Made by a program: the position numbers and the translations under genes. A stretch of DNA of 55,243 nucleotides, counting the filler, from Stramenopiles sp. TOSAG23-6 (taxonomy: Eukaryota): the NCBI GenBank assembly GCA_900128565.1. It is 2 parts of 2 records of this genome, joined end to end, with 100 filler letters (N's around TTAATTAATTAA, not from the genome) between each part and the next. Parts side by side here need not be neighbours in the genome. Positions count along the whole stretch, not along the records: positions 1 to 27,579 come from LT635980.1; 1 more part is not named here. One strand, written 5' to 3'. The notes under the pieces were generated by a model that was given only the letters and a program-made list of their open reading frames with translations, had not been told where the DNA came from and ran no database searches. This document shows, piece by piece, positions 1 to 32,468 of this stretch (position 1 is the first letter of the stretch; every line of letters begins with the position of its first letter).

Positions 1-99
1 TGTTTTATTTTTTTTTGTATAATTTTTTTTTTTTCGTACGAAATTTTGTACCTAACAAAATTTTTTAGTTTTTTTTTCAAATATTTTTCCAAAATACAT
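1..99 (+). other. Non-canonical intron, family member I0 (5' end truncated by window), probable ...AT 3' end
   Basis: Begins tgttttatttt (= [gta]tgttttatttt of other members). Has ttcgtacgaaattttgtacctaac (33-56) and ends aaatatttttccaaaatacat, like the intron at 33075. The frame G TAT CTG GGA AAG follows. Confidence 0.7.
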
Positions 100-826
100 G
101 TATCTGGGAAAGGCACTTTCAAATAAAGAGCAATGGAGAAAAGCTCTGCTATATGCTGAGCTCGCTGCGCGTAATTTATCAAGTGCTGCTGTACAACTAA
201 TAAACCGCGAGGCATTTGTGACAACTGAAAAAAATGAAAACACAAACCTTGTAAGTTTTCTAAATTGAATTTCGAGTTAATTTTTTTCGAACCAAATTTT
301 GTACCTAACAAATTTCGAATTTGACATTTTTTTCACAATACTTGGTTCTGTTTTCCGAAAGTTTTGTGATAATAGCAAGTTTGGTACTAATGATGAATGT
401 TTTAAAGATCTTTACAAAAGTACTTTAAATAATTCGAATTCGTATTTCGCTAAGGGCAAAGACATGTTCAAAGAACCATACTTTGCACAATATATGCGAA
501 GTGCAGTTGAAGTGTCGTATCATGATTATATCTTACCAATGCTGCCTCAATTAATCACAAAATTAGAAGAGATCAAAGCAACGCAAAGTAGCGACAATGA
601 AGCTAGTTCAAAAACGGCCAAAGCAATTAAAACGCTTCAGGGTACCATTGCTTTTGCCGATTATATCAAACCAAGTTGTAGAGGTAGTAGCGCACCACAA
701 ATTTTAACACGCTTTTTGGGATGTTACGGTGCTCTACGATTTGGAATAGCTCGAGATATCCAAGAAGTCATACAATCGGGAGTTTTTCGTGTCACCAGTC
801 CTAGTAGCCCTAGCCCTAGTCCTTAA
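100..826 (+). CDS. 3' part of a paralog of the giant helical-repeat protein (exons 100-250 and 344-826; 5' part outside window)
   Basis: Joined peptide YLGKALSNKEQWRKALLYAELAARNLSSAAVQLINREAFVTTEKNENTNL|GSVFRKFCDN aligns by eye with YMAMPLANEHSWVQCMRYLELAIFHLTNASFELLDRPKLYETMRDRDPGSMTEILHRICFDN near the C-terminus of ORF 1279-14244. HDYILP also recurs. Confidence 0.75.
251..343 (+). other. Non-canonical intron I1, probable GT...TT (93 nt)
   Basis: AAC CTT|gtaagtttt...ttttgtacctaac...cacaatactt|GGT TCT. Branch A at 308 is 35 nt before the junction and CTTG is repeated at both ends. An in-frame AAG at 361 is a possible canonical alternative. Confidence 0.65.
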
Positions 827-1278
827 ATCCCCACGATGTTTTAAGAAAAGGGTATGGAAAAGAGTATATTTTGTCTCATTTCTTGGATGATGATTGTTAT
901 TATAAAAATAGAATATAGATATATATATATGTCTTTTTTTTTACGTATTTTGAAATTTCATGTTTTTTACGCGCGTCCGTTACTTTCCGAGATCGATCTC
1001 TCGGAGATTTTGCGATCTTTGTTCATTTCGTACCATTTTTTTGTACTTAATCAATTGTTCGTTTCAGATTTCGGTTAAGTTTCTGGGTTATCCCCACATA
1101 ACCTTGTTCCATCTAGTAGTATCCAAACGCATCCTTGCTCTGTACAAGCTTTCTATATATTATAAATTCACAATCGTGCACTTTACACAATCACATAAGG
1201 TTTATTCATTACTAAACAAAGAAAAGTTACCGCAATCAACGCAATCAAGCGATTCATTCATTAATAAAACGTAGAAAT

Positions 1279-4200
1279 ATGAGTCCTTCTCCGAGTGCTA
1301 CAAACAAAGTTGAACAAGTAAACCCTCTTACTATTGCTCACACGTCTATTGAAATGAATCCTCTTGTTGTTGCTCAAACATCGGTTAAAACGAATCCAAT
1401 CGAAGTTACACAAAGCAGAAAGTATAACCCTCGACAGGCTATTCATGCGACGAAACGCCAAATTCCTCGAAACTCCCGGAGTACACGTAAAAAGTTGGAC
1501 CCAAACTATTCACAAGAACAAAAACGTAAACTGAAAAACAATACAGAAAGTTCTTGTTCAATAATGATGATTGGTGTAGCAGTTGGATTATTAAGTCTTG
1601 CTATAATCATTGTAGCATTTTTCTTAAATACTATATCAATGGATACACAAATTGAGAGAATGCAGACTGATTTGTCGGGGGCAAAAACAGAATTAAATTT
1701 GACAAAAACTTCAAGAATATCTGGCGGTTTATCACAAAGCACACAATCCAAAATTGCAGATATCATGGAGACTATGCCATCTTTGCAGATGGCAGCGGAG
1801 AAATTAAAAGAATCTCATATTTCCAAAGGAGTATCGACAACCGAGATTAACGAGATTAAAAAGGCGGTGAAAGAAGAATCAAAAACAACGCTTATCATAC
1901 GAATCAAAAGAGAAATTCGAGAAACTGAAGAGGCTATGCAAGAACTTGCTGCGGAAAGCAACGACAATGACGATGTAATCGCAGGCGTAAGAGCGTCTAT
2001 CAATACAGTCAAAGAAAAAGTTACAAAATTTGAGAAATTGGGTAATTTACAAAAAACTGACAAAATGGTTACTACGTTACTCGTTCAACTCCGGGGTATT
2101 ATTGCTCAAATACGTGCTCGCCAATCTTCCACATTTATTGGGAAACTGAATCAAATTGCTGCAAATCTAAAGTCAATGACTACTTTCAGTCGCAAAAACA
2201 ATGATAATGTTGAAAGGCTACAAAGTCAAATCACGAGGCTACGCGAGGCTCTTGGGCATGCAAAAGATGAAGATGAGCAAATAAAAAAGCAGATGGCAGC
2301 AGTGGCATCTACCGCAGATAAAGCAACTGCTGTTGCGAAGACATCAACCGAGATACAAAATTTAAGAAGAACAGCAAATCGGTTAAAAAAGTTTTGTCAT
2401 ATATATATGAAAGCTCTTGAAGGAATATCTGTGTCAAGTCATGATAAAATAACTTCCATAAACTCTTTTGAAAAGGCCGCCACATCTGCAAATTTAGTGA
2501 CCATGTCATCTGATGCCACACAAGCTGAAGAGTATCTTGCTTTTGCAGAATCTACATTCAAAGCAACATTGCCAAAAGCTCATAAAGCACTTGCTACTGA
2601 AGCCATTCGAATAAGCAGCGATATCAGAACACTTAGTAAGGGTTTGAATAATACTAACGTTTCTATGTTGATGGGAAAGGTTGGAGAAGGAACAAACTAT
2701 GCAAAGAAAGCCTTAACAAGTGTCCAGGATCATAACTCGAAAACATTTTTACATCTTATGAAAGATTCTCAGGTTGTTTATACGGAAGCACTTAAGGGAT
2801 TTGCGGTGATACTGAAAGAATTACTTGCTAAGGAAGCTGGAAGAAGTGGATATACGACAGCTATGAATCAAATTCGTATTGCAGAATCAGATATAAATTT
2901 GGCAATAAAAGGAGCTTCAAAAGTTTTGGGATTGGGAAAAATAAATAGTTCCATCAAATTGCTTATTGCCGCAAAAGAAGCTACAGAGTCAAGTGAATCC
3001 TTTGACAAAAGTAAAGGCATATCTGACTCAAAACAAATCGTATCAACATTGCGTGGTTTGAGGTTTATTTTACCTAACAAGGAAAAANTAAAAGTAGAAA
3101 CAAGCTTATCCAAGGCAATGAACAGTATTGAGCGTGCAGAGGTTTCAAAATCGAATAACCTTGCAGTATTCACGAAAACTTTTAATATTGCAATAGGACA
3201 CATAGCGACTGCAATATTAGACGCAATGGTGCCTGGCCTAGAATCAAAGCTTAAGGAACAATCAACTTCAGATGAAAGGGAAAGAGCTTTGGGTGAAGTT
3301 GGAAAAGCAAAGTTAAAAACAGAAAAGGCTAAAGATTCAATAAGATTCACTAAATGGTCCTTGGTCATGACAAATCTAAAGTTTGCAATTTTGTCGCTAA
3401 AAGAAGCATCGGCACCGTTTTCCCCAGATCAAGCAATCAACAAGAATGATATTGTTAAAACATTGCGCAATATGTCATCGACTCTAATTTCCATGAAAAG
3501 ATACTTGGTAGAGCCTGAAAGTCGGCAAAAGTTGGAACTAACTATATCAGAGGCAAAACCTGGACTTCATATTGTATCTGACACGACTAAATTTGTTACA
3601 AATGTTAGCAGTTCAATACATTTGTATGCTTATTCGATTGGTGGTCTACTATACCATGCAGTAACATCAAAGCTTTCGAAACAAAGCAAAACTTCAGTGC
3701 AACAACGCTCTCTTCATGAAGCTCGCAAAGCATTTGCATTATCAATGCAGGCTAAATCATCTGCAAATAAAAAACATTTATCTGAAGCTTTAACAACGTT
3801 AAAAGTTTCTGTTGAGTGTCTACAGGAAGCTGCTGCGGGTCTTTCGAAATTAAAAACAAAATTTGGAAATGATACACGATCAGTGCTTGATACACTGGAT
3901 ACATATTCACAAACATTGCTTGCAATGAAGCATTATTTTCCAGTCTCACAACAAAGGCCACTTGAAAATAAAGTAAGACAAGCTGTCTCGTCACTTGAGG
4001 ATGCCAACAGTAACAGATTGGAAAACACCAAATTTCATCAATTCATAGCATCGTCTATAGAAAAATTTGGTGAATCTGTGAACTTTTTAGGTCAACATCT
4101 CAAACCAATAGTGGGAGATCTGCCAGACGGCGATGGTAAAAGACATGCTATAAAACAAATGGAACTATCTACAGTCAATGGAAATTCTGCAGCAAAACTT

Positions 4201-7200
4201 GCACAAAAGCAAGAATTGAAAAATGCATTCAGCCAGCTAAACATTGGTTTCATATCATTGCAACAAACAGATCGTGATATAACCATTGGGATATTAAGAG
4301 GCATGGCTGAACCACTGCGCACAATGACTTCGCATATTTCTGACGAGCAAAAGAAAAAAAGCGCAATATCACGCATAACAAGCGCAGAATCTTCAGCTAA
4401 TGAAGCAAACAGGAATATATCTAACTCTGATGAGTTTATTGCAAGTGTTACGAAGTCAGTGCAGAGTTATGCATTTGCAATTTACCGAAAATTACTCCCT
4501 GGAATTCGTGAAAGTTTAAATGCTTTACGAGGTGACAAAAAGGTAGAAAGTTTGAAGAAAGCAGATACCGTAGAGACATACGCCGTTGCAGCACAACAAT
4601 TAGTAAATAATGGGAAATTTCAAGATGCGCTATTAAAACTTATACTTGCATTTAAACAATTGCACAAAACCGAATCTGTACTAACAATGGGGGGAGTTGA
4701 ATTTGACAATAAATATGCTGCAAATAAAGTTTTAAGAGAATACGCAACAGAATTGCTTCCAATAAGATTGTATTTAAAGAGCGTTGTGCAGCGTGATTCA
4801 ATGAAATCAAAGTTAGAGAGCGCTGCTAGTTACGCCGAAAAAGCAAAAACTAATATGTCAAATAAAAAGGAGTTCAATGAATATATGATTAAATCAATTG
4901 AAGAATACGCAAGTTCAATCAAAGGTGATTTATCGCATGCGATGAAGTTAGAAGTAAATTCTATGAAAGATGGCAGTGTTAAGGATGCCGCCCTGGCCAG
5001 AGTCGATGATGGTGAGAGAGATGCAGCATTTGTATCGAATCTTATTGATGGAAACTCTTTGCAAAGAGGTTTTACAAAACTTATTAGTGCGGGTGGTGCT
5101 CTGCAAGAAGCTGAACGCGCGATTGTGGTTGTAACACTCAGAGATATGGCTGAACCATTGCGAGATATGAAACCCCACTTGTCAAACGCAGCAAATATTA
5201 ATCGGGCTGAGAAGTTGATAGAAACGGCTGTTGAACTTGTAAGTGATGCGCATGATAATATAACTGATGAGAAGGACTTTATCGAACCCGCTAGCAAAGC
5301 TATAGAAATGTATGCTGATGTAATCTGGGTGGTATTATTATTTGACATAAAACACAAAATATTAAGTCTTCCAGATAATGTAAAGGGGAAAAGTGGCGCT
5401 TTAATTGCGGCAGGTAAGGCCAGAAAAGAAGCAAAATTGGCCCAAAGATATGCGAAACACGAAAAATTGATAAGCTCATTGAATCAATTAAAACTTGCAT
5501 TTACAGAAATAAAAAAAGCAGCTTCAGTTTGCCCAACAAATACTTTCCTGAATGATTTGTTGGACATTACAATTCAGTTAAGATATATGAAATCTCATTT
5601 ATTGACAAAAGAAAGGCAATCTAGTGCCAGTGAATTAATAAAGGAAGCAACGGCTATGGCCCAAGAAGCAGAGGAAAAAATTTCTAGTAAGCATAATTTT
5701 GCACATCTTGCTTCAGCATCAATTAGTAAATATGCAATTGTAATTCACAGTATAATTCTCCCCGACCTTAAAGAGAGACTTAGAAGAGAACTTCCGATAG
5801 GCAACATTCGAGATGTTGCTTTATCTGAAGCAGAAAATGCTAAAGCAGAAAGTGTGAAAGCCGAGAAACTTGGCGTTGAAGGGAATTTCTCTGGAGCTTT
5901 TGATAAATTAAAGACTGCATTCGCAGCATTAAAAGTAACAGAAGCAGCATTCGATGTTTCTGTTCTAATGTCAATGACAGAACCATTGGAAGGAATGTTA
6001 CCGCATTTGACAAATAAAAAAGAGAGAAATGACGCAAGAAATATGATAGTCGAAGCCGTGAAACTTCGAGATGAAACCCAAGCAAATATATCTACTCATG
6101 CAAAGTACTGGAAGCTGTGTCAGTCTGTAATTAAATATGCAAGTTGTATGTATATGAAAATTATACCTTCTATAAAACCAAAGCTTGAATCACAATTAGA
6201 TGGCGAGGACAGAAAAAAAGCGGTTAAAGACATTACAGAAGCTGATAAGCTTGCAAGACGTGCTACGTTTGTGGCAAATGAACGAAAATTGTCGTTAGCA
6301 ATGGAAAATCTTACAAAAGCGTTTACTTTACTCGAAAAAGTAGAAGTTTTTGTTCCTGTAACTGATGAGGAGTTTGTTCAAGTATTGAAAGATATATCAT
6401 CCACATTGAGACATATGAAAGCTTATATACCAGTAGAAAAACTACAACTCAAAGTAGATGCACATGCAGCTCATGCGTACACTTATGCAAATACTGCCGA
6501 GTTTAATATAAAGAAAGATAGAACAAAATTTAACAAATATATGGGGTTGGCTATTGTTGAGCATGTGCACAACATTCAAGGAATGTATAAAAGTATATAC
6601 AAAACGATTGAAGGTCAAGTCAAAAGTTATTCATATAATATCTCTAAAATAGCTATTGAACAGGCATTACAAAAGTGCGAAGCTGCAAAAGCGATTGTTG
6701 AAAAAGAATCTTGGAAGAAAGCCATGCCTTTACTAAGAGTCGGCATCGATTCTCTTAAGAACTCTGTAAATGCTTTGGTCTTAGACAAAAAATATATTAC
6801 CAATACTTTGATTAATATGGCCGAGCCTCTGCGACACATGAAAGTTTACATGACCCTTCAGTTCGCCAATGAAACTGAAGAGGTACTGCTCATTGCGAGT
6901 TCACTAGCAACCGAAGCAAAAAGTTACAAAACAGATAACCCGAGAATCGTAAGCAAGATTAGAAAATCCATTGAAAAATATGCTACGATTATGTTCGATG
7001 TCATTCAACCTGAGATTTTACGGAATTTACATGGCATTGTACGAAGTAGCTCTTCTATAACTGATTCATTTAAAATAATAAGAAAAGTCAAAACGCTCTG
7101 TACGGAGGCCCTAGAGTTTGTAACTGGTAACACTACTTCACATGAATGGATGAGTGCACTACCGAAGATAATAGACGCATCAACATTACTTCGTCGAGCT

Positions 7201-10200
7201 GCAACTGAATTAGTAGAAAGGGAAAAAGCCACACGCATATTAAAACAGTATGCACCGTTTTTACAATCTCTCATACCTTTCGCATCGATTTCTCATCAAG
7301 AAGACGCTTTTAGACTAGTCGGTCGTGGTGAGTTTTCTGCAAATTTTGCTAAAAATTACAGAGAAAATAATGATAAATTTCAGTCGGAAATGAGCAATTC
7401 AATTAAATCATATGGCTTAGCTATACATGACTATATTTTACCTGGTATAAAATCAAAAATAAAAGATCAACGCCAAATGGAAAGCACAAGTAAAACTGGT
7501 GCCCTAAAAAACATCGCCAAAGCAGCAATACTGAGTAGATCTGCAACAATGTTTGCGATGGGGTTTAATTGGTCAGACGGCCAAGTATCCTTAAAAGAAG
7601 CGATTACTTGCGTCACCGATGCAGTAAAATTGTTGCCCATCGACAGGGGTGTTTCTCAGCAAACATTACAGCAGACTGGAGAAACACTAGTATCACTAAA
7701 ACAATTTCTATCTTTAAGATCTCAGGAGGATACACGTAAACAACTTTTATTAAATAATCTACTGAGTGAAGCAGGAGAAAGCACAGATGCAGCAATGAAC
7801 ATTAAAAATGATGCAATCTTTATACCGTCCATGAAATCTGCTATAGTGAAGTATGCTCAGGCTATACGTGATCATTTCCAGCCTGACATACTTAAACAGT
7901 TAATGCAGATGAAACAATCGAGTGAAAACATGTCTCCAAGCATCATTATGAATATCAATGATGGTATTGATGACGCAACTGAGGCATTATTACAACAAGT
8001 CAAAGCAACTGAGGCAATTGCAATGCAAAACAGTGTAACTAGCACATCTAGAACCCGAGGCGTCAAAATCAAAGCCCCGTGGGAGTTGGGTCTATCAGCT
8101 TTAATTAATTCGGCAACCTTACTAGAATCTGCGACTAAGTCTCTAATTGATAAAACTATAGAAGTTGAGAAACTTGTGAACATCAGTGCTTCATTGCGTG
8201 GCATGAAGCAATACACGTCGAAGGCAACATCGGCTAAGGCTGAACTTGAAATAGCCAAAGGAATAACAAAATCAGGCATCGCAAGAAGCGCGATAAATGA
8301 TTTGAATAAATACGTAGAAAATATCACATCAGCGACATTACATTATGCTATTGCTATTATGTTGTTACAACCTGATATCTTAAAAAAACTTCGAAGCCTA
8401 CCTGCAAACAACGAAAAAGTTGTTAGAGAAAAAGATGCTGCTATAGAAAAAGTTAAGATCGCCATGAAAATGGCAACACTAGCTAGAAATTTAAACCAAG
8501 GAGGAAAGTGGTCACAGGTGCTGCCGCGATTAAATAGTGCAAACCATTTGCTTCGCTTAGGTCTAATATTTATACCACAAAGAAAGATTCAGCTTACAAA
8601 GGATCTGGTCGAACCATTACGAGGCCTGAATCATTTCTTATCAGTGGGGTATGCTCGAAATGCTTCAAAATCTTTATGTCTTGCTTTAAACTTTGCAAAT
8701 GCAGCATATTTGGATATAAAACATGGAAAAGTTTTTCAATATAAAGAAAATTTGGTCAAATCAATGAATGGTATTGCCGAAACATTGAAGTCCCTGATAT
8801 TGCCTGGTATAGAAATAAAATTAAGTTCAATGAAAGGTATAAATAAAGCATATGCTATGAGTGCTTTCGAAAGCACAAAGGAAAAATCCCAAAACGTTAT
8901 CGAGATTTTAAACGGTGATAGCGATAATTTAGCAAGCGCATTGGATAAATTATCCATCTGTATCAATGATGTACAACTAGGAGTGTCCTATATCGCACCA
9001 GATAAAACATACACACTGGCTGTGCTGGTACAACTTGGCGACTCCTTAAAAATATTGAGACCACTACTTTCAAAAATAGATAAAACTAAGTTTGATGATG
9101 ACATAGGCAAAGGTGTTCAATCCACAAATATGGCAGCTGCAATCAAAGATAGAAGATCAAAGGAGAATGTGGTAAAATTTGCTAAAAATGTAAAAGATGC
9201 GATTAAGTTCTATGCTTCTGCTTTGATGAATCAGACCTCTGAAACCGTAAAATCTAAATTGAAACTTAAGTCTGGGTGTTCTGGGTGTATATCTGCAGCG
9301 ATTGATGCAGATATAGCTCAAGGTACGATTAAAAATGCTTACTTATTAGCTGATAATAACGATTGGATTGCAGCATTTCGTAAATTAACTACTGGATTTT
9401 TCCGCCTTCAAAGTGCCGCAGTCAAAGCAATGGATATAGAAGCTACAAATGCCAAAGTTGATGATATACTAAAATATGTTATTTCACTACATGAAGTAGG
9501 AATACATTTACCAAAGGATAGAAAAATGAAAGCCAACCAAGCTATCGCGAATGCTCATGACAATGCACTTAGGGCAAAAACATATGTATCATCGGATCGA
9601 AAAGCCTTTTCCGTTTTCATAAATTTATCGCTCAGTGAGTATGGACACACTCTGTCTTCAAAAATGATACCATTTATAAAAACAAAAATAGAAAGTCTAC
9701 CTACCAATGCAATTAAAGCAGAGGCTTTAAAGTTTATTGATAAAGCTCTTTCAGATAGCATTTGGACAATAAAATTCGCCGATTCTGAACGATGGTCTTT
9801 GGCTTCATTAAGATTAAAGGCAGCGATGCATTCTATACACCTAGCAGTTGACAAATTGCCCCTAGATCAAGGCTATGTAGTGACCCGACTGGAGAAAATG
9901 AACACAGCATTTCACAATCTGATTTCACAGTTTTTACACAAAAGTAAGGATAAGAACAAGGCTGTGAAAATTCTTGATGCTGGAAAAAAAGAATTAAATC
10001 AAGCCAAGAATAAACGCACGACTAAAAACACTGCCGCGTTCAAAGCACACATTATTGCATCTTTGGTGAAATATTCCGAACTTATTTTAAATGTGATGGA
10101 ACCAGAACTAGATACATTGGTATATGCAGCGAAGGGCAAGCTATTAGGGCCAGAATTTAAAGCATCTACCACTTATCTAAAAGCAATAAGAACTCATTGT

Positions 10201-13200
10201 ACTTCGAGTCTTACGTATTGTAAAAAAAAAGAAATGTCCAGAGCATTTAGCGAACTATTTGTAGCATTTAACAAGCTAAAATCTTCATTGATTTATGTGG
10301 TTAATAAGTCAGATTTTGTTGTTTCATTGAACAATTTACAGATACCACTAAAGTATATGCGATATTACATCTCCACAGAGCAACGTGAAAAATGTATGAA
10401 GGAGCTGGATGAAGCTGTAATGTATGGAAATTTAGCGCAATCTCGGCCTACAACGTTCCATGAAAATATTGGAATTGCAATGAAAAAGTACACAAGTTCT
10501 ATAACTAAGTATATAGGCCCACGTATTAAAGAACAATTACTTGAGATGGATATTGATAACATTACAAATGCGGCCATTAAGAATGTAGAAGAATCGATGA
10601 AATTAGCTTTAGATACCAATGAGATGTGTAATCGGTCAGCGTTGTTAGAAGCAAAATGGACATTAGTGAAAGCAGTCCATGCTCTACAGCGCGCCGAAAA
10701 GGCATTACCAACGGACATAGATAATGCAACACAGATCATTTCAGACACATCTGAGGTAATGCGATACCTTCAGATGTATCTACCAGAAGATTTTCGCTAT
10801 CAATTAAACAATTTACTTTACCAAAGAGTTGAACCGTTGGAACTCGCACTTCGCAAGCAGGATAATATAGCTGAACGCGGGAATGCTATATTTCGGGTAT
10901 TAAAAATTGATGCACAGATTATGAAACAATTACTAGTCCCTAAAATAAAAGAATTATTGAATACTATAATTCGTGGAGCCAACGCAAACGGCAAAACAAA
11001 ATTCAAAAAAGTACTTGCAAAATTGGGCGATGCAGAACAAGAGGCCAAAAACTGCGACAATGTGAACAATGCTGAACAATGGACGACAAAATATCGTTTT
11101 GCAAAGACATGCATGTACTTAATCATAGAGATAGCGAACCAATTACCACTAGATAAAGGGTATATAGTGGATTTTTTGGAAGAAATGTATGAGCCCTTGA
11201 AAGATATGACTTCAAACGGAATAGTAAAATCTAGACTCAGCGTTGCTAAAAGCAAAGTATTAGAAGCAGCTGCAATGGTGGATAAAAGCAATGCGATTGA
11301 GTTATTTTACAATACTATTAATGAAGTATTAAAGCTGTATTCGGAAAGTATGGCCAACGAGATACCCATAGCTATTAAAACACAACTGAGAAGTAAAAGT
11401 GAGAGTATCGATGTACACACCGCAGTGATTGACATCGACATAGCAAAAGACTTTGCAACTAATGCAAATGCTTTGTCAAAAGGCCAAAGTTGGAAGGCAG
11501 CACTCCCGAACACCTTTATTGCATTCGAATATCTTACTAAGGCATATTCACCGTTATGGGATAAGGCCCCCAAAATACAATTATTGGGAAGTATACACAG
11601 TCCTATATCTTCTATGCTTTTATATTGTGATGAGAACAAACTAGAGGAAAATAAAAGTATTCTTAATATCGCCATTACAACAGCAAAAAATGCAAGCTTG
11701 GCGACCACTTACAAGGATTTTGCGAGGAATATATCTGACTCTATCGGTAACTATGCAGCAGTTATAGATTTATATATATATCCTAGCTGGAAAAACAGCT
11801 TTCAAAACCTCAAAGGTGAAGCCAAAACTGTTGCTATGGAGGGGTTAAAAAGTGCAAGAAGATATGGGAGGACATCTCGCGGACAGGCTGTCGCAAAGAA
11901 GTGGAATCTTGCTATATTATCACTTAAAAAGGCCGAGCAAATGCTAATCAAAGTTGAACCATCATTATCAAAAGATCGAGCGAAGGTATATGCTGCCACA
12001 TTCATGAAATCAATTGACTCACAGCTGAAAGTAAATATCCCAAAATATTCATCAGATCCAGATTATGCACCCACAAAATCAACGTCATTTAAAGAAGCGC
12101 GGGATATTGCCTCAGATGCATTTACCATTAAAAATGGAAGTACTACTAAATTTCGCGATAAACTTTGCGATGCAATGATCAAGTATGTTGATATTTTGAG
12201 TTTTGAATCGAATGAGCTCATCAAGACACTGAAAATGAAATCGGGTAATGGTTTTAAAATAGGTATTGATGATGCAAATTATGCAAAAAAATCTTTTACT
12301 ACAGTTCAAAAGATACTATATACGAGCAGAAGTAGGTGGATAAAAGCATTCAGCGAGTTCGCGGAGGGGTACGACAGCTTACTCAAAGCTCTAGTCCTGT
12401 TGGTAGATAAGGTTGAGGCCTTTAATATATTACGATCGGCTGTATTACCCTTCTTATTTCAAATGGATCCTAAGGATAATCTTTGGTTTAAAAAAGGAAG
12501 TCAACAATATAAGAATTTATCAGTTGGAACAGGTAAGGCAACTGCTTTAATGTGGCATGCATATGATGTGAGATCTGATTCTGGTTTGTTTGCGACAAAT
12601 ATGTCGAAAGCTATTAAGGAAATATCATCTGGGTGGATTTTAAGCGACTTTTTAAAAAACAAATTTTCTGAGAAGAATTGCAAAAAGAAAAATCCGTGCT
12701 TAAAAGCATATGAAAATATTGAAAAGGGCCAACGTGATTTGACACTTGCAAACACACTTGCTCTAAAGGAACGATGGTCTGAGGCTTACACTAAAGTAAA
12801 ATCGGGGTTAGATTTGATTAAACCCACCATAACTAAAGCCGACACTGACAAGTTGTGGGCTCTTGATGACTTCTTTACGAAGAGGCGTATTAACAGATTA
12901 TGGATGGCTCTTCAAACAATAAGAGATACGATGAAATACGACATAGCTTTAGAATACAGAAATAAAGATTGGCAATCTAAAATCCAAGACAAGTTAGAAT
13001 CCGCCAAAAAAATAAATGCCACCGACCGTAAGAATTTTATAAAGTATCTTTGGGGTATGTTTGACTTCATGATCAATAACTTTGAGATGGGTTTATCCGA
13101 TAAAATTCAAGCAACTCCTACAAGCAGTACCGAACTTCGTAAAGCAAGAACATCTCTGGGCGTGTTGCCAGAAAAAGATAATGATTTGACAGAACCTGTA

Positions 13201-14244
13201 ATATGGAATTTTACGAACGCATTCGATGAAGCATTAGAACATATGCACAGTGCATTATTTTTCAGTATAAGTAAGAATGAGGAAGCAATGAAGAAAATTA
13301 TGTTTTTAGAATCTCAATTACGTGTTTTTGATTTCTTTGCATTTTTTCGAAATAAATCTAATGCAGAAAAAGAAGAATTTTTAAAACCAATGCATGAGGC
13401 ATATGTACATTATATAAAAGCTGGGAAGAATATGGATTATCGAGAAGTATTCAACCGGGAAATATCATCTCAATTGCACTTATACTGCACATATATAAAA
13501 AAACTGTACCCAGAATTAAGAAAGTTACTCCAGGAAATGATTTCAGATAAAAAGAAAAGTAAGAGTTCAAGCTGGAGAAATAAGAATAAGGATCTCGCCG
13601 ATTCTCTGCTAAATATACAACTATCTAATATTGATGAATCTGAGCATTACATGTACATGGCAATGCCTCTTGCAAATGAACATTCCTGGGTACAGTGTAT
13701 GAGATATCTTGAACTTGCGATTTTTCACCTGACAAATGCTTCATTTGAACTACTTGACAGACCGAAATTGTATGAAACAATGAGAGATCGAGATCCAGGT
13801 TCAATGACTGAAATCTTACATAGAATATGTTTTGACAATCGTTATGACATAGGAGGATATTGTAGTGAGAGTAATACCAAATTTCATCATGGCCTCAATA
13901 CTTATTATGCCTATTCAAGTGATAGGTACTACATGAATTTAGGTATTTGGAATTATACTCGAATGGCTCTTGAGTCAATCATTAGTAAATTTGACAGTAT
14001 TTTGCATGATAAAAGCGACGGGACAAACCAAAACTTCTTGATTTGGAAGGGTGCTAAATATCAAAGAGATGAGGCTTCTGTTGAAGTAACAATTGCAAAA
14101 TCGTTTGTAACTTTATTACAAAGTCGATACAATTTAGATAAAAAGTACCGAGATGTGTTTGAGACGCTCGGCCTCATATATGGTGGAGTCAGAGCAGTTC
14201 AAAGAGCACAGGCAAATGGTATATTAATAAGCAAAAATGCCTAA
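1279..14244 (+). CDS. Giant 4321-aa predicted type II membrane protein with coiled coil and many degenerate ~110-125-aa alpha-helical repeats
   Basis: Single uninterrupted ORF with one hydrophobic segment (IMMIGVAVGLLSLAIIIVAFFL, ~1561-1626). Recurring motifs MAEPLRxM, SIxxYAxxI...LPxIK and WxxAxxxLxxA. Confidence 0.9.
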   Translation: MSPSPSATNKVEQVNPLTIAHTSIEMNPLVVAQTSVKTNPIEVTQSRKYNPRQAIHATKRQIPRNSRSTRKKLDPNYSQEQKRKLKNNTESSCSIMMIGVAVGLLSLAIIIVAFFLNTISMDTQIERMQTDLSGAKTELNLTKTSRISGGLSQSTQSKIADIMETMPSLQMAAEKLKESHISKGVSTTEINEIKKAVKEESKTTLIIRIKREIRETEEAMQELAAESNDNDDVIAGVRASINTVKEKVTKFEKLGNLQKTDKMVTTLLVQLRGIIAQIRARQSSTFIGKLNQIAANLKSMTTFSRKNNDNVERLQSQITRLREALGHAKDEDEQIKKQMAAVASTADKATAVAKTSTEIQNLRRTANRLKKFCHIYMKALEGISVSSHDKITSINSFEKAATSANLVTMSSDATQAEEYLAFAESTFKATLPKAHKALATEAIRISSDIRTLSKGLNNTNVSMLMGKVGEGTNYAKKALTSVQDHNSKTFLHLMKDSQVVYTEALKGFAVILKELLAKEAGRSGYTTAMNQIRIAESDINLAIKGASKVLGLGKINSSIKLLIAAKEATESSESFDKSKGISDSKQIVSTLRGLRFILPNKEKXKVETSLSKAMNSIERAEVSKSNNLAVFTKTFNIAIGHIATAILDAMVPGLESKLKEQSTSDERERALGEVGKAKLKTEKAKDSIRFTKWSLVMTNLKFAILSLKEASAPFSPDQAINKNDIVKTLRNMSSTLISMKRYLVEPESRQKLELTISEAKPGLHIVSDTTKFVTNVSSSIHLYAYSIGGLLYHAVTSKLSKQSKTSVQQRSLHEARKAFALSMQAKSSANKKHLSEALTTLKVSVECLQEAAAGLSKLKTKFGNDTRSVLDTLDTYSQTLLAMKHYFPVSQQRPLENKVRQAVSSLEDANSNRLENTKFHQFIASSIEKFGESVNFLGQHLKPIVGDLPDGDGKRHAIKQMELSTVNGNSAAKLAQKQELKNAFSQLNIGFISLQQTDRDITIGILRGMAEPLRTMTSHISDEQKKKSAISRITSAESSANEANRNISNSDEFIASVTKSVQSYAFAIYRKLLPGIRESLNALRGDKKVESLKKADTVETYAVAAQQLVNNGKFQDALLKLILAFKQLHKTESVLTMGGVEFDNKYAANKVLREYATELLPIRLYLKSVVQRDSMKSKLESAASYAEKAKTNMSNKKEFNEYMIKSIEEYASSIKGDLSHAMKLEVNSMKDGSVKDAALARVDDGERDAAFVSNLIDGNSLQRGFTKLISAGGALQEAERAIVVVTLRDMAEPLRDMKPHLSNAANINRAEKLIETAVELVSDAHDNITDEKDFIEPASKAIEMYADVIWVVLLFDIKHKILSLPDNVKGKSGALIAAGKARKEAKLAQRYAKHEKLISSLNQLKLAFTEIKKAASVCPTNTFLNDLLDITIQLRYMKSHLLTKERQSSASELIKEATAMAQEAEEKISSKHNFAHLASASISKYAIVIHSIILPDLKERLRRELPIGNIRDVALSEAENAKAESVKAEKLGVEGNFSGAFDKLKTAFAALKVTEAAFDVSVLMSMTEPLEGMLPHLTNKKERNDARNMIVEAVKLRDETQANISTHAKYWKLCQSVIKYASCMYMKIIPSIKPKLESQLDGEDRKKAVKDITEADKLARRATFVANERKLSLAMENLTKAFTLLEKVEVFVPVTDEEFVQVLKDISSTLRHMKAYIPVEKLQLKVDAHAAHAYTYANTAEFNIKKDRTKFNKYMGLAIVEHVHNIQGMYKSIYKTIEGQVKSYSYNISKIAIEQALQKCEAAKAIVEKESWKKAMPLLRVGIDSLKNSVNALVLDKKYITNTLINMAEPLRHMKVYMTLQFANETEEVLLIASSLATEAKSYKTDNPRIVSKIRKSIEKYATIMFDVIQPEILRNLHGIVRSSSSITDSFKIIRKVKTLCTEALEFVTGNTTSHEWMSALPKIIDASTLLRRAATELVEREKATRILKQYAPFLQSLIPFASISHQEDAFRLVGRGEFSANFAKNYRENNDKFQSEMSNSIKSYGLAIHDYILPGIKSKIKDQRQMESTSKTGALKNIAKAAILSRSATMFAMGFNWSDGQVSLKEAITCVTDAVKLLPIDRGVSQQTLQQTGETLVSLKQFLSLRSQEDTRKQLLLNNLLSEAGESTDAAMNIKNDAIFIPSMKSAIVKYAQAIRDHFQPDILKQLMQMKQSSENMSPSIIMNINDGIDDATEALLQQVKATEAIAMQNSVTSTSRTRGVKIKAPWELGLSALINSATLLESATKSLIDKTIEVEKLVNISASLRGMKQYTSKATSAKAELEIAKGITKSGIARSAINDLNKYVENITSATLHYAIAIMLLQPDILKKLRSLPANNEKVVREKDAAIEKVKIAMKMATLARNLNQGGKWSQVLPRLNSANHLLRLGLIFIPQRKIQLTKDLVEPLRGLNHFLSVGYARNASKSLCLALNFANAAYLDIKHGKVFQYKENLVKSMNGIAETLKSLILPGIEIKLSSMKGINKAYAMSAFESTKEKSQNVIEILNGDSDNLASALDKLSICINDVQLGVSYIAPDKTYTLAVLVQLGDSLKILRPLLSKIDKTKFDDDIGKGVQSTNMAAAIKDRRSKENVVKFAKNVKDAIKFYASALMNQTSETVKSKLKLKSGCSGCISAAIDADIAQGTIKNAYLLADNNDWIAAFRKLTTGFFRLQSAAVKAMDIEATNAKVDDILKYVISLHEVGIHLPKDRKMKANQAIANAHDNALRAKTYVSSDRKAFSVFINLSLSEYGHTLSSKMIPFIKTKIESLPTNAIKAEALKFIDKALSDSIWTIKFADSERWSLASLRLKAAMHSIHLAVDKLPLDQGYVVTRLEKMNTAFHNLISQFLHKSKDKNKAVKILDAGKKELNQAKNKRTTKNTAAFKAHIIASLVKYSELILNVMEPELDTLVYAAKGKLLGPEFKASTTYLKAIRTHCTSSLTYCKKKEMSRAFSELFVAFNKLKSSLIYVVNKSDFVVSLNNLQIPLKYMRYYISTEQREKCMKELDEAVMYGNLAQSRPTTFHENIGIAMKKYTSSITKYIGPRIKEQLLEMDIDNITNAAIKNVEESMKLALDTNEMCNRSALLEAKWTLVKAVHALQRAEKALPTDIDNATQIISDTSEVMRYLQMYLPEDFRYQLNNLLYQRVEPLELALRKQDNIAERGNAIFRVLKIDAQIMKQLLVPKIKELLNTIIRGANANGKTKFKKVLAKLGDAEQEAKNCDNVNNAEQWTTKYRFAKTCMYLIIEIANQLPLDKGYIVDFLEEMYEPLKDMTSNGIVKSRLSVAKSKVLEAAAMVDKSNAIELFYNTINEVLKLYSESMANEIPIAIKTQLRSKSESIDVHTAVIDIDIAKDFATNANALSKGQSWKAALPNTFIAFEYLTKAYSPLWDKAPKIQLLGSIHSPISSMLLYCDENKLEENKSILNIAITTAKNASLATTYKDFARNISDSIGNYAAVIDLYIYPSWKNSFQNLKGEAKTVAMEGLKSARRYGRTSRGQAVAKKWNLAILSLKKAEQMLIKVEPSLSKDRAKVYAATFMKSIDSQLKVNIPKYSSDPDYAPTKSTSFKEARDIASDAFTIKNGSTTKFRDKLCDAMIKYVDILSFESNELIKTLKMKSGNGFKIGIDDANYAKKSFTTVQKILYTSRSRWIKAFSEFAEGYDSLLKALVLLVDKVEAFNILRSAVLPFLFQMDPKDNLWFKKGSQQYKNLSVGTGKATALMWHAYDVRSDSGLFATNMSKAIKEISSGWILSDFLKNKFSEKNCKKKNPCLKAYENIEKGQRDLTLANTLALKERWSEAYTKVKSGLDLIKPTITKADTDKLWALDDFFTKRRINRLWMALQTIRDTMKYDIALEYRNKDWQSKIQDKLESAKKINATDRKNFIKYLWGMFDFMINNFEMGLSDKIQATPTSSTELRKARTSLGVLPEKDNDLTEPVIWNFTNAFDEALEHMHSALFFSISKNEEAMKKIMFLESQLRVFDFFAFFRNKSNAEKEEFLKPMHEAYVHYIKAGKNMDYREVFNREISSQLHLYCTYIKKLYPELRKLLQEMISDKKKSKSSSWRNKNKDLADSLLNIQLSNIDESEHYMYMAMPLANEHSWVQCMRYLELAIFHLTNASFELLDRPKLYETMRDRDPGSMTEILHRICFDNRYDIGGYCSESNTKFHHGLNTYYAYSSDRYYMNLGIWNYTRMALESIISKFDSILHDKSDGTNQNFLIWKGAKYQRDEASVEVTIAKSFVTLLQSRYNLDKKYRDVFETLGLIYGGVRAVQRAQANGILISKNA

Positions 14245-20727: not shown

Positions 20728-21093
20728 TTTAATATCTGTTGGTTTCCAGCAAAATTTATCGTAAGATTTTAGCTTGAACAATCTATTTCAAATTTTCAAT
20801 TGTCGTCGTTCAGATTAGATTTGAGTATGGAGAGGAGGATCGAATGAAAGAGAGATATCTACATAGATCTCGATTTGAGATTTGATTCTTTCGAAATTCA
20901 AAATTATTTTTAGGTAATAAAATTTGGTACAAAATTATTGAACACATCAAAAAATATTTTGTTGATGGCTATAAGATCGACGCGACTTCCAAATTGCAAT
21001 AATTATCAAAAGGTGTGTGATTTATTTACCAAGTGTTCTTTCGTTTTAAGATTACGCGGGTCTGACCACTTGGTTCTTTCCTTTGAGAATAAC

Positions 21094-24000
21094 ATGGGCG
21101 ATCGTCCGAAATTATCCCAACCAATAAAGGCAAATCACCAGATACAGTTCGGAGCTCTCTCAGACGAAGCTGAGCTTTTCTGTGAATCTACAGGTTATGT
21201 GTCAGGACCTAGTACAGAGCGAAGAAAGTCCCCAAGTTTACGAAAAAGTCCACGGGCTAGTCCTTTGTCAATGAATGGAACCCATACAAGGACACCATCA
21301 CCACATATAGGGAGAAAAAGCCGGACACCCTCCCCAGGAGCTTATGGCTCAAGACGTAAACGTACCGCTCCTATCAGAAGTGCTACCAATTCCACAGGTT
21401 CTGCTTTTGAAAGGAGGCAAAGAACATTAACGAGCCCCTCCCCCCATTCACCTGCTAGATGTGGGACCAATCCTCCTGCATTTGAGAGACGCCAACGAAC
21501 GCTAACAAGTCCATCTTCACATGGAAATTCTCTTGGACAGTGTATGTTGTTCGTATCCCATTGAACCTTTATTTTTTCACATTCTTTTTTTTTTTTTCTC
21601 ACTTTAGATTTTATGAAACATTTTCACTTTATAGCAAGAAAGTCTAGAGCTCGTTCACCTGTCGGACCATTATCACAGTCAAATAGGAGGGACATTCGTG
21701 ATTCAAAATGTCCTCGAGACCCTACATCGTCTACAACTAAAGGAAAGTTGTCATCAAACGGAGCTTCTCATGAGTGGGACAGAAACAATAGCAAATCTTC
21801 GAGGAAAAGAAAGTCATCTTCATCTGACAACAGAAAAGACTTTGCTGCTGCTGTCGCCGCTGCTGCTGATGCTATAGCGCGTCAAGAAGAAGCAGCTCGA
21901 AGAAATTCTAGTTTAACGAAGAAAACGATTCCAGCAATCTCAAATGGAACAAATAAAGTCACAAATATATTGTCTGAAAGTCACACGAGTCCAAATTTAT
22001 CACCCACACCAAAAACTTCAAAAGCATCCTTATCGTGTTCAATCTCTTCTGCGTTTGATAGTTCTGTTCATCAAAATATCAGTGAGGTTGGCGAAGACAC
22101 GAAATCTGATCAAGTTTTGAAGGATAGTGGAAATATTGAATCGGAAGTTTCAAATAGTGGAAATGTAAATAATACTGGAACAAAAAGTAATAAAAATACA
22201 ACAACAACGCAAAGATATGAATCATACGAAGAAAATTATTCAGAACCTGCGACACCTAGAGATTTACAGTTTTTAAATGATAGTTCGTCTCTTTTGGGAA
22301 TGTTTCGCTCCCAAAATCGTAATAGGGTAAATAATCATAATAATACTTCAAGTACATCAGCACCAAATAGATCATTACTTCCATCAAATCTTTCCGAGCA
22401 AAAAAATAATTCAACACAATTGTCTCAAATTTCAATGAAAAGTAAAGCAACACCTCAGGGCTCATCATCTGATGATATAAGTGCAAAATCCTCAAAATCA
22501 TATTTTAAAACATCACCACCTAATTCTTATCTAAAAGCCACAAAATCCTCAAAATTATATTTTAAAACATCATCACCTCCCAATTCTTATCTAAAAGCCA
22601 CAACATCGTCTGGTGTAGTAAGTGTAAACAAAAATGATTCAAAAAATTCAAAAATTCAAAAAGCAATAGTCTCATCAACTGTGAAATGCAGCACCACAAA
22701 TTGCTCTTTAGATGTCTCAATAAATTCAAAATCGGCAAAGCTTCCTAAAGGTTTGAAATCGAACCGTGTTGTTTCTATGGATGGTACGCCCGATATTATC
22801 CAAAATGTCGTCAACAGTAAAATGAATTGTCGGGTAGGACGTCATCTGACACATCATCAAAGCTCTTTGGTAACTTCAAATGGACAGTCGAAAGTTAACC
22901 AAAATACACGTTTATCAGCATCAAGGGGTCGTCCTACATCAGGTGGAGTAGTTCTATCAAAAGTTGTATCAAGAGTTCGTGGTACTGTACCAACAATGAA
23001 AAAGAACTTTGTTAGTGCTATTAGTAGTGCAAGTAGCGCAAGTAGTGCTAGTAGTAGTGCAAGTAGTAGCACAAGCAGTGCAAGTAGTAGCGGCGGGGCT
23101 ACAGTAAATGATAGATCAATTCGCCGGTTCAAAAAACGTTCCTGGGCAGATGTTGCTGCTGGTACCGATAGAACAGACAGAGCTGTTCATACTCTAGTGC
23201 AGAGTACACAAAATTTGTCTATCAATCAATCCAATAATCAAACTGACGCCGCTCCAACTGGTGCGGAAATAAATATTAATAAGCCATGTCGAAACCATGA
23301 AATTGGATCTCGTGGAGGTTTATCTTCAACATTACACAGGAAAGAACCAATGGTTGGTGAAACTGGCGCAACTTCAGAAAATTCTCTCAGTCATGAAAAA
23401 ATTCATACAAAGGATAAATCAACACGAAATCGAAGAAATGGTTCACATACAACATCTCACTCGAACGAATATATCTTGCCACAAGAAGAATTGATAAATA
23501 GAGATGGTCATGTTGAGAAAGAAAATGTTTCGATTGTAACAGAAAAATCGGAATTTCATGCACGTAATAAATCTACACCGCAAAAAAAAAATAATTGTGA
23601 TCAGGAACATGAAATAAAGCCGTGGATAACTTCTAATGGGTCAAATCAATGTCTAAGTAGTGTTTCGAAAATAAAGCAAGGCGAGCTTCGAGATGGTGCA
23701 GTNCCCCCCCCNCCACCTGAAGTCGATACAGCTGCAGGTACAGGTAGTAGCATTAGTAACACGTGCCACAATATGAAGTGTAAGATTCATCATGATAGCA
23801 GTTACACTAAAGATGGTTTAACAAAGTCAAATGAGGTAATTAGTATTGATATGATAGGTAATATTATTTCCCGAGATTCAGAAATGAGTTTTGAAGATAT
23901 TCGTAAATTAGAAAAGATTTTAATGATGAAAAAATCTGAACTTTTAAAAACTACAAAATTAGGTACAAAGTGTGGAAGTGCAACTGATACTTCGGTTGAA

Positions 24001-25536
24001 AACTCTCAGGAGAACGGCTTAATGGTACTCGAAAGTCTAGTTGAACGTCAGCAACAGACTCTTGTTGACCTTGGTTATATAGCTGCCGCACCAGGAGGTC
24101 AATCAAATGGACGTACACACAAAGCTGCTATTCATGGGTACCGTGGTGACGACGATGAAATTGAAAGAATCAACACAGAAAAGCGTATTCATACAAATAA
24201 ATATAAATGGCGTCATGATGTAAATTCCAGTTCCTCATCTGAGGATGAAGATAAGGATGCATTTGATGATGCAACTTTTCACTTTGCGACAAAAAAAACA
24301 CAGCAACAATCTCAGTATTCAAATTATGGTGGAAAGCGATCATCAAGTGAGTGGGGCAGTAGTTGTAGTAGAAGCTCTTGTAGTAGTTCTAGTATTAGTA
24401 GTGCTAGTAGCATGAATGGATCTCTTATTTGCTCCAATAAGCAAAATATGAAAAGTAAATCTGTTCTTTCAAGAGATGATAAAAATACTACATTAAATTT
24501 AAAGAATGGAAATATTAGATTTTCGGATAATATCAAAGAAAAATCATCCAATATAGATGTAGATGCACGAAATGATAAAAATAAGAATCATAATGTGACT
24601 AGTGATGAACATTCAAAATCTAATTGCGCCACTGAAGCCGAACAAGGAATTCATTCACGAAGTAATCACCATAATACAAAGTCCTCAAAGAAATGCACAG
24701 AATCAGATATTTCTTGTGACATTACTAAGGCTTCACAGAGAGAAGTTATAGATCTTAACAGTAAAAAGGAAAAGATTGATGATAATAGCCGTCGAAGAAT
24801 CTCTTCTAGTAATAACAACCAACATAGAAATGGAAATACGAAAATGTTTGATTATCCTATTTCAAATAATCAAAATGTAATGGAAGAATCGAATTCGAAA
24901 CAATCTAGGCAACATCGCCGCGACTTTGGAAAAAGTCCTGGGGGTATAATGTTTCGTCAATCTCCTCATCCTTTAGTTCCACCATTGAATCTAGTCGCCC
25001 TCACTCGCAAAAACATTACTCCAGGAGTACCAGCATATCGTGTAGTTGGTAGTACGAGCAGCAAGAAGGGCACACATTCGCATGGTAATCATCTTAAACA
25101 ACCACCCTTAAGTAGAAGTAGTAGGAAAAATAATGGACATCGTTCGAAGTCTCATCATCATCATCATCATCAGAGTAGCTCAATATTCCGTCAAGGTCCT
25201 CGACAAATTACAAGGGAAATTACAGCAAATAGACATAAATTAGGTCTATATTCACCAAGGGCACAGGTTGCATATTCCCCGAGAGACATGGCATACTCCG
25301 CATCACGACATCGGAAATTGAGTAAATCTCCAGCATTATCGAAATGTGTCGAAACTATTTTAAGTCCAAGATCAGCATTTTCAAAAGCGTCTTCCATATC
25401 TTCAGGAACCAGTAGCGCTTTCAGTACTCCAAGTTCTTCACCATTTCCAACACCGCGCAGCGCTCGTACACCTAAAGGCTCATATCTTTCCTACCGGTCT
25501 CCACGTACTCCAAGGACACCTCGATCATATTATTGA
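21094..25536 (+). CDS. Large Ser/Asn/Lys-rich, probably disordered protein with many SP/TPR motifs (exons 21094-21541 and 21635-25536)
   Basis: ORFs 20938-21564 and 21613-25536 join in frame through a phase-1 GT-AG intron. Contains poly-Ser tracts, His6, and duplicated AFERRQRTLTSPS and KSSKxYFKTSPPNSYLKAT. Confidence 0.75.
21542..21634 (+). other. Canonical GT-AG intron (93 nt)
   Basis: CAG T|gtatgt...polypyrimidine...tttatag|CA AGA; phases match. Confidence 0.8.
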
Positions 25537-26670: not shown

Positions 26671-27170
26671 TTTAAAGTTTACCCTATAAAATGAATAAAC
26701 GTTGTAGAAGTTAGAACCTTTCGACAGAGAGAAAACAAGGTTCGTTGCGGTTTGCGGCTTCGAGAGTCTTCGACTGCTTTTTTCGCGATGGATGATGTTT
26801 TGCTTTTGAAGGAATTATTTTTCGACAAACCTGTTTTTAGGCAGCTAGATTGAGTAACACGAAATCTGGACTTATGAACGAATGTTCGTGATGATTGATC
26901 GGCCGGTCATATTAAATGAATGGCAGATTGTTCACTCTCTTCGATACCGTTTGTGGTTATATAGTTAAGATAAGAGTAATAAGGTTATAAGTGTTTGGTT
27001 GTTGGCTTAGGGGTATTTAGAATATAATTCTAAATACATTATACAATCAAATAAAGTAGAATAGTTAATTGGTAAACTGTTTGATTCAGGGTTAAAGTTA
27101 TATTGATCAAATAGTTATATTACAAACATATCGTTGTGCACGAAATCCGTCACTGCAAATCAAGCTGGTT

Positions 27171-27579
27171 ATGAGCCCATACGGCGAAGGTAATTCGACG
27201 TATAACAATATGGATGTAAATAAAATGGTAAATGCTAAAGACGTGGATGCTTCGTATGCATTCGTGGCTTTGCAACTGCAAGCGAAGGCGGCTGACAAGT
27301 CGTCGAAAAAGAAATCGATTGCGGAAGAGAAAAAGACAGAAGCTGCGATGGCTGACGAGAAATGTGAAGTAACCCAATTCAAAGGCAACTCACTAGAGAC
27401 CGTGAAGAGGGAAATGAAGAGGTCGTACAAGAAGATTTATCTATCTCAGGTAAACAAAGAGCTAAGGAAAAACACACCTCAGTTACCTACAGCGGATGAA
27501 GTAATAGCGTGGGTTACAGAATCGGCTCCTTACGTAAGGCAAGGAAAAGTAGGTGTTCCAAAGGTAAATGTAGATAAGG
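27171..27579 (+). CDS. Hypothetical protein, truncated by contig end
   Basis: Open frame with protein-like composition running into the N spacer. No family recognised and the start is uncertain. Confidence 0.45.
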
Positions 27580-27679
27580 NNNNNNNNNNNNNNNNNNNNN
27601 NNNNNNNNNNNNNNNNNNNNNNNTTAATTAATTAANNNNNNNNNNNNNNNNNNNNNNNNNNNNNNNNNNNNNNNNNNNN
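27580..27679. other. Artificial contig-joining spacer
   Basis: 44 N + TTAATTAATTAA (stops in all six frames) + 44 N = exactly 100 nt. Confidence 0.97.
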
Positions 27680-28444: not shown

Positions 28445-28583
28445 CTTTATACGCACACGTGAACCCTCACTCCACCCTAATTATCCTCGAAAAATAATTG
28501 AATGCACGAGGTGGTAGTTTACAGTTCTTTAGGCTACACGCGTGTGACATCAATCTCAATGACTCAATCGCGCTCGATTTTTC

Positions 28584-28598
28584 AAACCCTAACCCTAA
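28584..28598 (+). repeat. Interstitial telomere-like / telo-box motif AAACCCTAACCCTAA
   Basis: Upstream of the FG-repeat gene. The same motif occurs at 35788-35802 and, inverted, at ~42980-42994. Confidence 0.6.
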
Positions 28599-32375: not shown

Positions 32376-32468
32376 TCGAGGAAGACGTTAAATTTCAAAT
32401 TCATATTATTCATATACAGTACTATTATAAATATTTGAGTTTATTACAAAACTTCACGATAAAGTTAG

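Follow-up and report, generated by a model that had tools for sequence, protein, structure and literature searches.

We examined a 55,243-nucleotide (nt) stretch of DNA from Stramenopiles sp. TOSAG23-6 (assembly GCA_900128565.1), referred to below as the window, in which seven homologous short introns interrupt three unrelated genes: an orphan gene with two copies (I0 and I1), a gene encoding SMP, C2, and PH domains with three copies, and the gene for AP-3 delta with two copies. The copy that drew attention is I1, at positions 251 to 343 of the plus strand, the end of which repeats the last bases of the exon before it. A search with a profile built from the copies (nhmmer) recovered six strong members, with E values of 3e-16 to 6e-12, and one divergent member that starts at position 35813 of the minus strand, which supports treating the seven as one sequence family. 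Copies other than I0 and I1 are named below by their first position in the direction of the gene.

1 to 99, plus strand: I0, orphan gene; 5′ end cut by the start of the window; 43-nt tail; ends in CAT, then ATG at 98 to 100; E = 4.5e-12
251 to 343, plus strand: I1, orphan gene; 93 nt, GTAAGT...CTT, exon end CTT, phase 0; 34-nt tail; E = 3.4e-16
294 to 309, plus strand: the box of I1, AAATTTTGTACCTAAC, a putative branch site; its last A, at 308, lies 35 nt before 343
33075 to 33168, minus strand: 33168 intron, SMP/C2/PH gene; 94 nt, GTATGT...CAT, exon end CAT, phase 0; splits the PH domain
35294 to 35389, minus strand: 35389 intron, SMP/C2/PH gene; 96 nt, GTACGT...CAT, exon end TAT, phase 2
35710 to 35813, minus strand: 35813 intron, SMP/C2/PH gene; 104 nt, divergent, GTATGT...TAT, exon end CAT, box ATGTTAAC
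54544 to 54640, plus strand: 54544 intron, AP-3 delta gene; 97 nt, GTACGT...CAT, exon end AAT, phase 2
55152 to 55243, plus strand: 55152 intron, AP-3 delta gene; 3′ end cut by the end of the window; follows the exon end GAT; E = 6e-12

The five complete copies are 93 to 104 nt long, and pairwise identities within the family are 74 to 94% over aligned columns (z scores of 1.2 to 11.7 against shuffles), with I0 and the 55152 copy 94% identical to each other. All seven copies lie in the sense orientation of the host gene (one-sided p = 0.008), and they are concentrated in 3 of roughly 25 genes. The six visible 5′ ends, GTATGT in three copies, GTACGT in two, and GTAAGT in one, agree with the consensus 5′ splice site of major-type introns. 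Common to the family is a box, AAATTT(T/C)(G/A)TACCTAAC, with the extended form AAATTTYRTACCTAAC; from its likeness to TACTAAC we take it to be the putative branch site. The part upstream of the tail varies between 59 and 70 nt among complete copies, and the longer 5′ part of the 35813 intron is accounted for by a (TTAGGG)2 sequence within it. I0 and the 55152 copy share a 9-nt insert that holds an AG, and the tail of I0 is thereby lengthened to 43 nt. The five complete copies fold no better than shuffled sequences do (minimum free energy z scores of −1.4 to +1.1, the 35813 intron being folded as a 107-nt version), and a hairpin around the box (GTACnAAATTTnGTAC) was found only in I0 and the 55152 copy and is not conserved.

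None of the complete copies has the AG of a major-type 3′ end; they end in AT or TT, and no AG occurs in any register that the repeats across their junctions permit. Counted from the C of the box, the tail of each of the five is exactly 34 nt long (35 nt when counted from the last A of the box); the 3′ end follows Y-W-T and restores the reading frame in every one of them. The first AG after the box would be usable in only one of the six copies in which box and tail are visible, namely I1, at 361; four copies have it out of frame, and at 55152 it leads to a stop after 3 codons. Three copies have an AG 11 to 12 nt after the box (55211 to 55222; 35327 to 35316, minus strand; and 57 to 68, the AG of I0 occupying 67 to 68 within its 43-nt tail), and the one 12 nt after the box is unusable both at 55152, with the stop just mentioned, and at 35389, where it reads AAG and is out of frame. 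In the 54544 intron, none of the 4 AGs in the 140 nt that follow the box is in frame, and for introns of up to 217 nt no acceptor that keeps the frame ends in AG.

Protein homology places these ends independently of the box. The SMP/C2/PH gene has an ortholog, P0121 (EukProt, g300.t1; HMMER E = 3e-205, 49% identity, 1,514 amino acids), against which 14 in-frame acceptor alternatives were scored at each junction. For the 33168 intron a length of 94 nt gave the only gapless alignment (score 177; 91 nt also scored 177, but with a gap), for the 35389 intron 96 nt scored highest, at 199, with 93 and 99 nt at 194, and for the 35813 intron 104 nt scored 103, against 93 for the 107-nt version, which would end in CAT at 35707. 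At the AP-3 delta junction, comparison with the solved chain 9c58_D has exon 1 ending at residue 275 and exon 2 starting at 277, with one junction codon between them, and the exon upstream of the 55152 copy aligns up to its last residue. A GOLD-type domain suspected from a motif to run across the 35389 intron gave a Pfam match in neither half, and the P0121 alignment was used instead; for the last exon of the SMP/C2/PH gene, a word search returned no homologs. By this protein evidence four junctions are fixed at codon resolution, and removal of the family introns without an AG is therefore well supported at the level of sequence.

With the ends so placed, the last two bases of the intron equal the last two bases of the upstream exon in all five complete copies, AT four times and TT in I1. 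The exon-end/intron-end triplets and the full repeats across the junctions are the following.

I1: CTT/CTT; full repeat CTTG
33168 intron: CAT/CAT; full repeat CATG
35389 intron: TAT/CAT; full repeat AT
35813 intron: CAT/TAT at 104 nt; full repeat AT (TCAT in the 107-nt version)
54544 intron: AAT/CAT; full repeat ATGTACG

A sequence-only reading of this DNA had listed the same pairs except at the 35813 intron, where it gave CAT/CAT; the end 3 nt earlier is the likelier one on the alignment scores above. It had also placed GAT before the 55152 copy, as the sequence bears out. A left-hand repeat of at least 2 nt is found at 5 of 5 junctions, compared with 7.7% of random position pairs 90 to 110 nt apart in the window, and random junctions have a mean total repeat of 0.77 nt, with probabilities per junction of 0.025 for 4 nt or more and 0.001 for 7 nt or more. 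The 2-nt junction repeat is real. In I1 it is direct (TT...TT) rather than inverted, and position −3 does not covary (C, C, T, C, and A in the exons; C, C, C, T, and C in the introns). GT also occurs within the first 3 bases of the downstream exon in five of six copies, where 9.6% would be expected (p of about 4e-5, a post hoc comparison in which the acceptor of I0 is assumed; exon starts concerned: 344 to 346, 33074 to 33072, 35293 to 35291, 54641 to 54643, and 100 to 102). From this enrichment the 3′ junction looks like a copy of the 5′ junction, AT|GT. The exon downstream of the 54544 intron begins GTACG, like the intron itself, and that after I0 begins GTAT.

These observations could well reflect an introner-like, duplicated family of introns that is spliced without an AG and in which the WT repeat is the footprint of insertion; this is the interpretation that we tentatively favor. 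On this view I1 would belong to a dispersed set of short, duplicated introns of spliceosomal type that resemble introners: every copy brings a 5′ splice site of normal form, GTAYGT or GTAAGT, together with a branch-like box, and none brings an AG. Insertion of the element would have duplicated 2 nt of a WT target, or left an equivalent microhomology footprint, so that the last two intron bases repeat the exon end; the 3′ cut would fall 34 nt past the box, 35 nt past its last A and behind Y-W-T, and removal of the element together with one repeat copy would restore the frame. We infer that removal is spliceosomal and occurs in RNA, with the box as branch site, a cut at 343 in I1, and the repeat as a trace of insertion. 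Such a duplication has the merit of accounting by one mechanism for the T at −1 of exon and intron both. It is conceivable, though we think it rather unlikely, that the spliceosome ignores AG and measures off the second-step cut as with a ruler, 35 nt past the branch adenosine; at 35389 and 55152 the AG 12 nt downstream of the box would then be skipped. A mobile intron of that kind would need only a 5′ site and a branch box, its 2-nt target duplication becoming the 3′ end.

The case for an insertion footprint turns on I1, which reads ...AAACCTT|GTAAGT...TACCTAAC(309)...CACAATACTT|GGTTCT and has a second potential acceptor:

359 to 361, plus strand: AAG, the alternative acceptor of I1; first AG after the box, 52 nt from it, in frame

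If I1 were spliced conventionally at this AAG, CTT at 341 to 343 would be a decayed, unused family end and the one case of covariation other than AT would vanish. The AAG lies behind a T-rich stretch, in no other copy does the family end have T at −2, and the six residues at stake between 343 and 361 are constrained by no homolog; the host protein has no Pfam domain, and neither a word search nor the ESM Atlas returned a homolog for it. We nevertheless consider conventional splicing unlikely here. None of the other five visible tails has a usable first AG, the family end keeps the frame in all five complete copies and is fixed by homology at four junctions, and one in-frame AG among six copies is what chance would give at one in three each. 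The tail of I1, moreover, is 34 nt long and aligns with that of the 35389 intron through the last base, from which, together with the 34-nt rule, a cut at 343 is probable.

Even with that cut, AT or TT at both ends could result from two independent splice-signal preferences, AT at the exon end and YAT at the intron end, with the TT/TT of I1 coincidental or made up of two tolerated variants; the family would still consist of AG-less spliceosomal introns of common origin. This is the main competitor to the insertion footprint, and we regard it as possible but doubtful. AT stands at both places in four of the five complete copies, the pairing of TT with TT has a permutation probability of 1/5, and position −3 does not vary in step. 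Ordinary introns, which read CAG|GT...CAG|G, show a likeness of exon end and intron end without any duplication, and the GT enrichment after the junction resembles a recognition signal more than a footprint. Two separate preferences would, however, require two departures, from G at exon −1 and from G at intron −1, in a genome whose machinery seems otherwise unchanged, to judge from a candidate conventional intron with the exon end GT and a normal AG (21542 to 21607, described below), and they would leave to chance the 7-nt repeat at 54544 (P = 0.001) and the 4-nt repeats at I1 and 33168 (P = 0.025). The footprint reading has also to be set against the possibility that the inserts are excised from DNA, like the internal eliminated sequences of ciliates, which the sequence-only reading had offered as an alternative, or that they stay in place, as transposons that recently entered genes now dying. 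Any insertion with a duplication would be expected to restore the frame exactly on removal, and seven copies in so few genes are possible for unselected genes. We found nothing in favor of ciliate-like excision and think both versions very improbable. The ends are AT or TT beside G...C rather than the TA that bounds ciliate internal eliminated sequences, the 5′ end and box match spliceosomal signals, and the genetic code is standard, with TAA serving as a stop. The uniform sense orientation speaks against excision and dying genes alike, and the copies differ by 6 to 26%, yet the flanking exons have open frames of up to 716 codons and show no frameshift in alignments with homologs. Parts of the stretch from 32400 to 36700, which holds three inserts, are contained in seawater metagenomes and polyA metatranscriptomes: by sharing of sampled words, 98% of these words occur in the source DNA and 77% in an independent seawater metagenome, and 13 RNA-labelled runs share words with parts of it, with a top share of 0.35. 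The open exons and the words in polyA runs argue that the genes are live and the inserts removed. Since these points join the sense orientation of all copies and the canonical-looking 5′ site and box, RNA-level splicing appears by far the likeliest route of removal.

Several results nonetheless weigh against a spliced, introner-like family with an insertion footprint. AT is palindromic, and with AT at both ends in four copies, I1 alone is informative; the matching of TT with TT that the sequence-only reading had singled out is indeed read there, and all five dinucleotides match, but it is a single case (p = 0.2) with an acceptor placed by family homology and frame only, while the AAG at 361 is in frame as well. 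The proposed 2-bp WT target duplication stands as a 2-nt repeat in every complete copy and not as a unit of fixed length, the full repeats ranging from 2 to 7 nt; a plain 2-bp duplication explains neither this variation nor the GT enrichment. Because removal of a transposon and one duplicate copy always restores the frame, frame and homology by themselves do not prove splicing, and the 9-nt insert in I0 and the 55152 copy breaks the 34-nt spacing. The suggestion of an Introner- or miniature inverted-repeat transposable element (MITE)-like family that tolerates the lack of AG fared well as to one family and no AG, but the inverted ends are no longer than 3 nt (GTA/TAC) and are confined to three of the six copies with a visible 3′ end: GTA...AATAC is present, as had been noted, in I0, I1, and the 35389 intron, and the other three end in TTC, ATC, and TAT. 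The autonomous transposase that such a family might be expected to use was sought in 19 larger open reading frames (ORFs) of the window, a 4,321-amino-acid ORF and several shorter ones lying outside the scan, and no Pfam match to a transposase or integrase was found; nor does the window hold a full-length intergenic copy. Nor were further members of the family found in the public collections scanned. A 16-nt box pattern hit at least 118 metagenome loci, and none among the matches listed resembles the family beyond the seeded box; two of the 118 listed match the family model over about 30 positions each, at E values of 1e-4 or weaker. With an 18-nt box pattern, 40 prokaryote-genome loci and 1 viral-contig locus were hit, each a chance match of 17 to 22 bits to the box only.

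Box-like sequences also lie outside the introns, and one further intron candidate was found.

36856 to 36914, minus strand: copy resembling the box, CCGTACCAAATTTCGTACCTAAAAG, upstream of 36581, where the SMP/PH gene starts; no donor upstream; nhmmer E = 1.1e-4
20907 to 20934, minus strand: copy resembling the box, TGTACCAAATTTTATTACCTAAAAA, in the intergenic DNA that separates the divergent genes 20473 (minus) and 20938 (plus); weak, E = 0.45
1020 to 1067, plus strand: stretch resembling the box, TTCGTACCATTTTTTTGTACTTAAT, with TTTCAG at its end; upstream of the 4,321-amino-acid ORF (1279); no nhmmer match at E of 10 or below
21542 to 21607, plus strand: candidate conventional GT...AG intron; 66 nt, long pyrimidine tract, no box, exon end AGT

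Copies of the box resembling GTACCAAATTTnnTACCTAAAA (near-palindrome GTACnAAATTTnGTAC) thus stand 230 to 460 nt upstream of three gene starts, in gene sense and with no donor upstream; they could be remnants of intergenic elements or a regulatory motif common to the introns. The candidate at 21542 to 21607 joins two S/R-rich ORFs (20938 to 21541 and 21608 to 25536) in frame, with no homolog or domain found in its support, and suggests that AG and AG-less introns coexist in this genome; given its exon end GT and normal AG, the AT...AT pattern looks specific to the family rather than genome-wide.

Among known systems, the few introns of Trichomonas and Giardia, with their extended, fused branch and 3′ motifs, and the TACTAAC introns of yeast resemble the family in having very uniform signals and a constrained distance from branch to acceptor. 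Those introns end in AG, whereas here there is no AG, and the likeness spans the whole of about 95 nt (up to 94%). U12-type introns have long conserved 5′ and branch motifs, take their 3′ site from the distance to the branch, and tolerate ends other than AG, in all of which the family is similar. Their 5′ site is RTATCCTT and their branch site TCCTTAAC, roughly 10 to 15 nt (up to 26) from the 3′ end. The family does not fit this type: the 5′ site is GTAYGTTTT, the box GTACCTAAC (ACCTAAC), the tail 34 nt, and the distance from branch to end 35 nt. U12 introns are mentioned in PMC11282704.

Introners, the non-autonomous DNA transposons known from Micromonas, Aureococcus, and many aquatic eukaryotes, likewise consist of many similar short introns in sense orientation at unrelated positions, and the mark of similar introns at non-homologous positions is found here in seven copies in three unrelated genes. 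They also have a short direct repeat across the junctions, with splicing removing the element and one repeat copy (as described in PMC11282704), as would be the case here. Classical introners differ in having clear terminal inverted repeats, a duplication of fixed length, and a canonical AG that is supplied or co-opted; the present family has no AG, inverted ends of at most 3 nt, and repeats of 2 to 7 nt, and is at most putatively mobile. Introns with non-GT-AG borders (AG-AC and AG-AT in Fritillaria borealis) and direct repeats of 3 to 5 nt at the junctions occur in F. borealis, Amoebophrya, and Polarella and, according to PMC11282704 and PMC7789003, are thought to derive from MITE-like insertions tolerated by an adapted spliceosome. 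Their 5′ ends are noncanonical, their inverted repeats of 8 to 20 nt form hairpins, and they lack a fixed internal box. In the present family the 5′ site and the box look canonical, only the 3′ end departs, the distance from box to end is fixed, and there is no folding signal. Transposon-derived introns with noncanonical ends and junction repeats are also described for euglenids in the same two sources (PMC11282704, PMC7789003), and the nonconventional introns of euglenids and hemistasiid diplonemids lack AG and have borders blurred by junction repeats, as here, according to PMC11282704 and PMC12621601. In those nonconventional introns base pairing joins the ends, which lack GT, whereas the copies here have a 5′ GTAYGT and no significant predicted structure; with folding no better than in shuffles, end pairing of the euglenid or Amoebophrya type is not supported.

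The window as a whole, with a G+C content of 30 to 40% and long ORFs densely packed on both strands, belongs to a compact, intron-poor marine protist genome. Eukaryotic domains in its ORFs include NIPA, LRR/Skp1, SMP with C2 and PH, GTPase, MYCBPAP with PGK, Myb, and M14 peptidase, as well as adaptin, EF-hand, UBC, a proteasome subunit, HMG, and HIT. Flagellar and opisthokont-like matches occur among the proteins, and the best named relatives of one of them are early-diverging fungi, at about 34% identity. Scans of the window found no tRNA, no Rfam family, and no small nuclear RNA gene. One unbroken ORF of 4,321 codons (1279 to 14244, plus strand) makes up more than a quarter of the coding sequence and has no family intron. 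The sequence is a scaffold, with two runs of 44 Ns each (27580 to 27623 and 27636 to 27679) and four single Ns; the two N runs lie within a tentative gene model at about 27100 to 28460 (minus strand). An RRM domain suspected of being split by an intron at 31710 to 32375 runs on in frame with an insertion, and no intron is present there.

Repeats unrelated to the intron family comprise a tandem repeat at 42008 to 42268 (unit of 120 nt, 2.2 copies, 96% matches) and, adjacent to it, two similar units of about 300 nt at about 42880 to 43300, each starting with the telomere-like AACCCTAA. Interstitial telomere-like (TTAGGG)2 sequences match four times in the window, against 0.1 expected:

28587 to 28598, minus strand: (TTAGGG)2
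35791 to 35802, minus strand: (TTAGGG)2
42980 to 42991, plus strand: (TTAGGG)2
43289 to 43300, plus strand: (TTAGGG)2

One of them lies about 130 nt upstream of the ORF start at 28456 (minus strand), and the sequence may be a telobox-like promoter motif.

No feature of spliceosomal introns is more constant than the 3′ AG. To our knowledge, the exceptions are introns of the minor spliceosome or introns that have lost both ends. The family described here was not found in the open-access literature searched; supplements of introner papers could list such families. In its copies the 5′ site and branch box look like those of a textbook, only the AG is missing, and the cut appears to fall at a fixed distance, with four junctions pinned by homology. 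If the cut is indeed set by a ruler, almost any site could let a transposon turn into an exact intron, with no need to co-opt an AG. Should RNA confirm the proposed removal, these introns would offer a natural system for studying how the site of the second catalytic step is chosen when there is no AG and how intron-generating elements may spread without one at the target.

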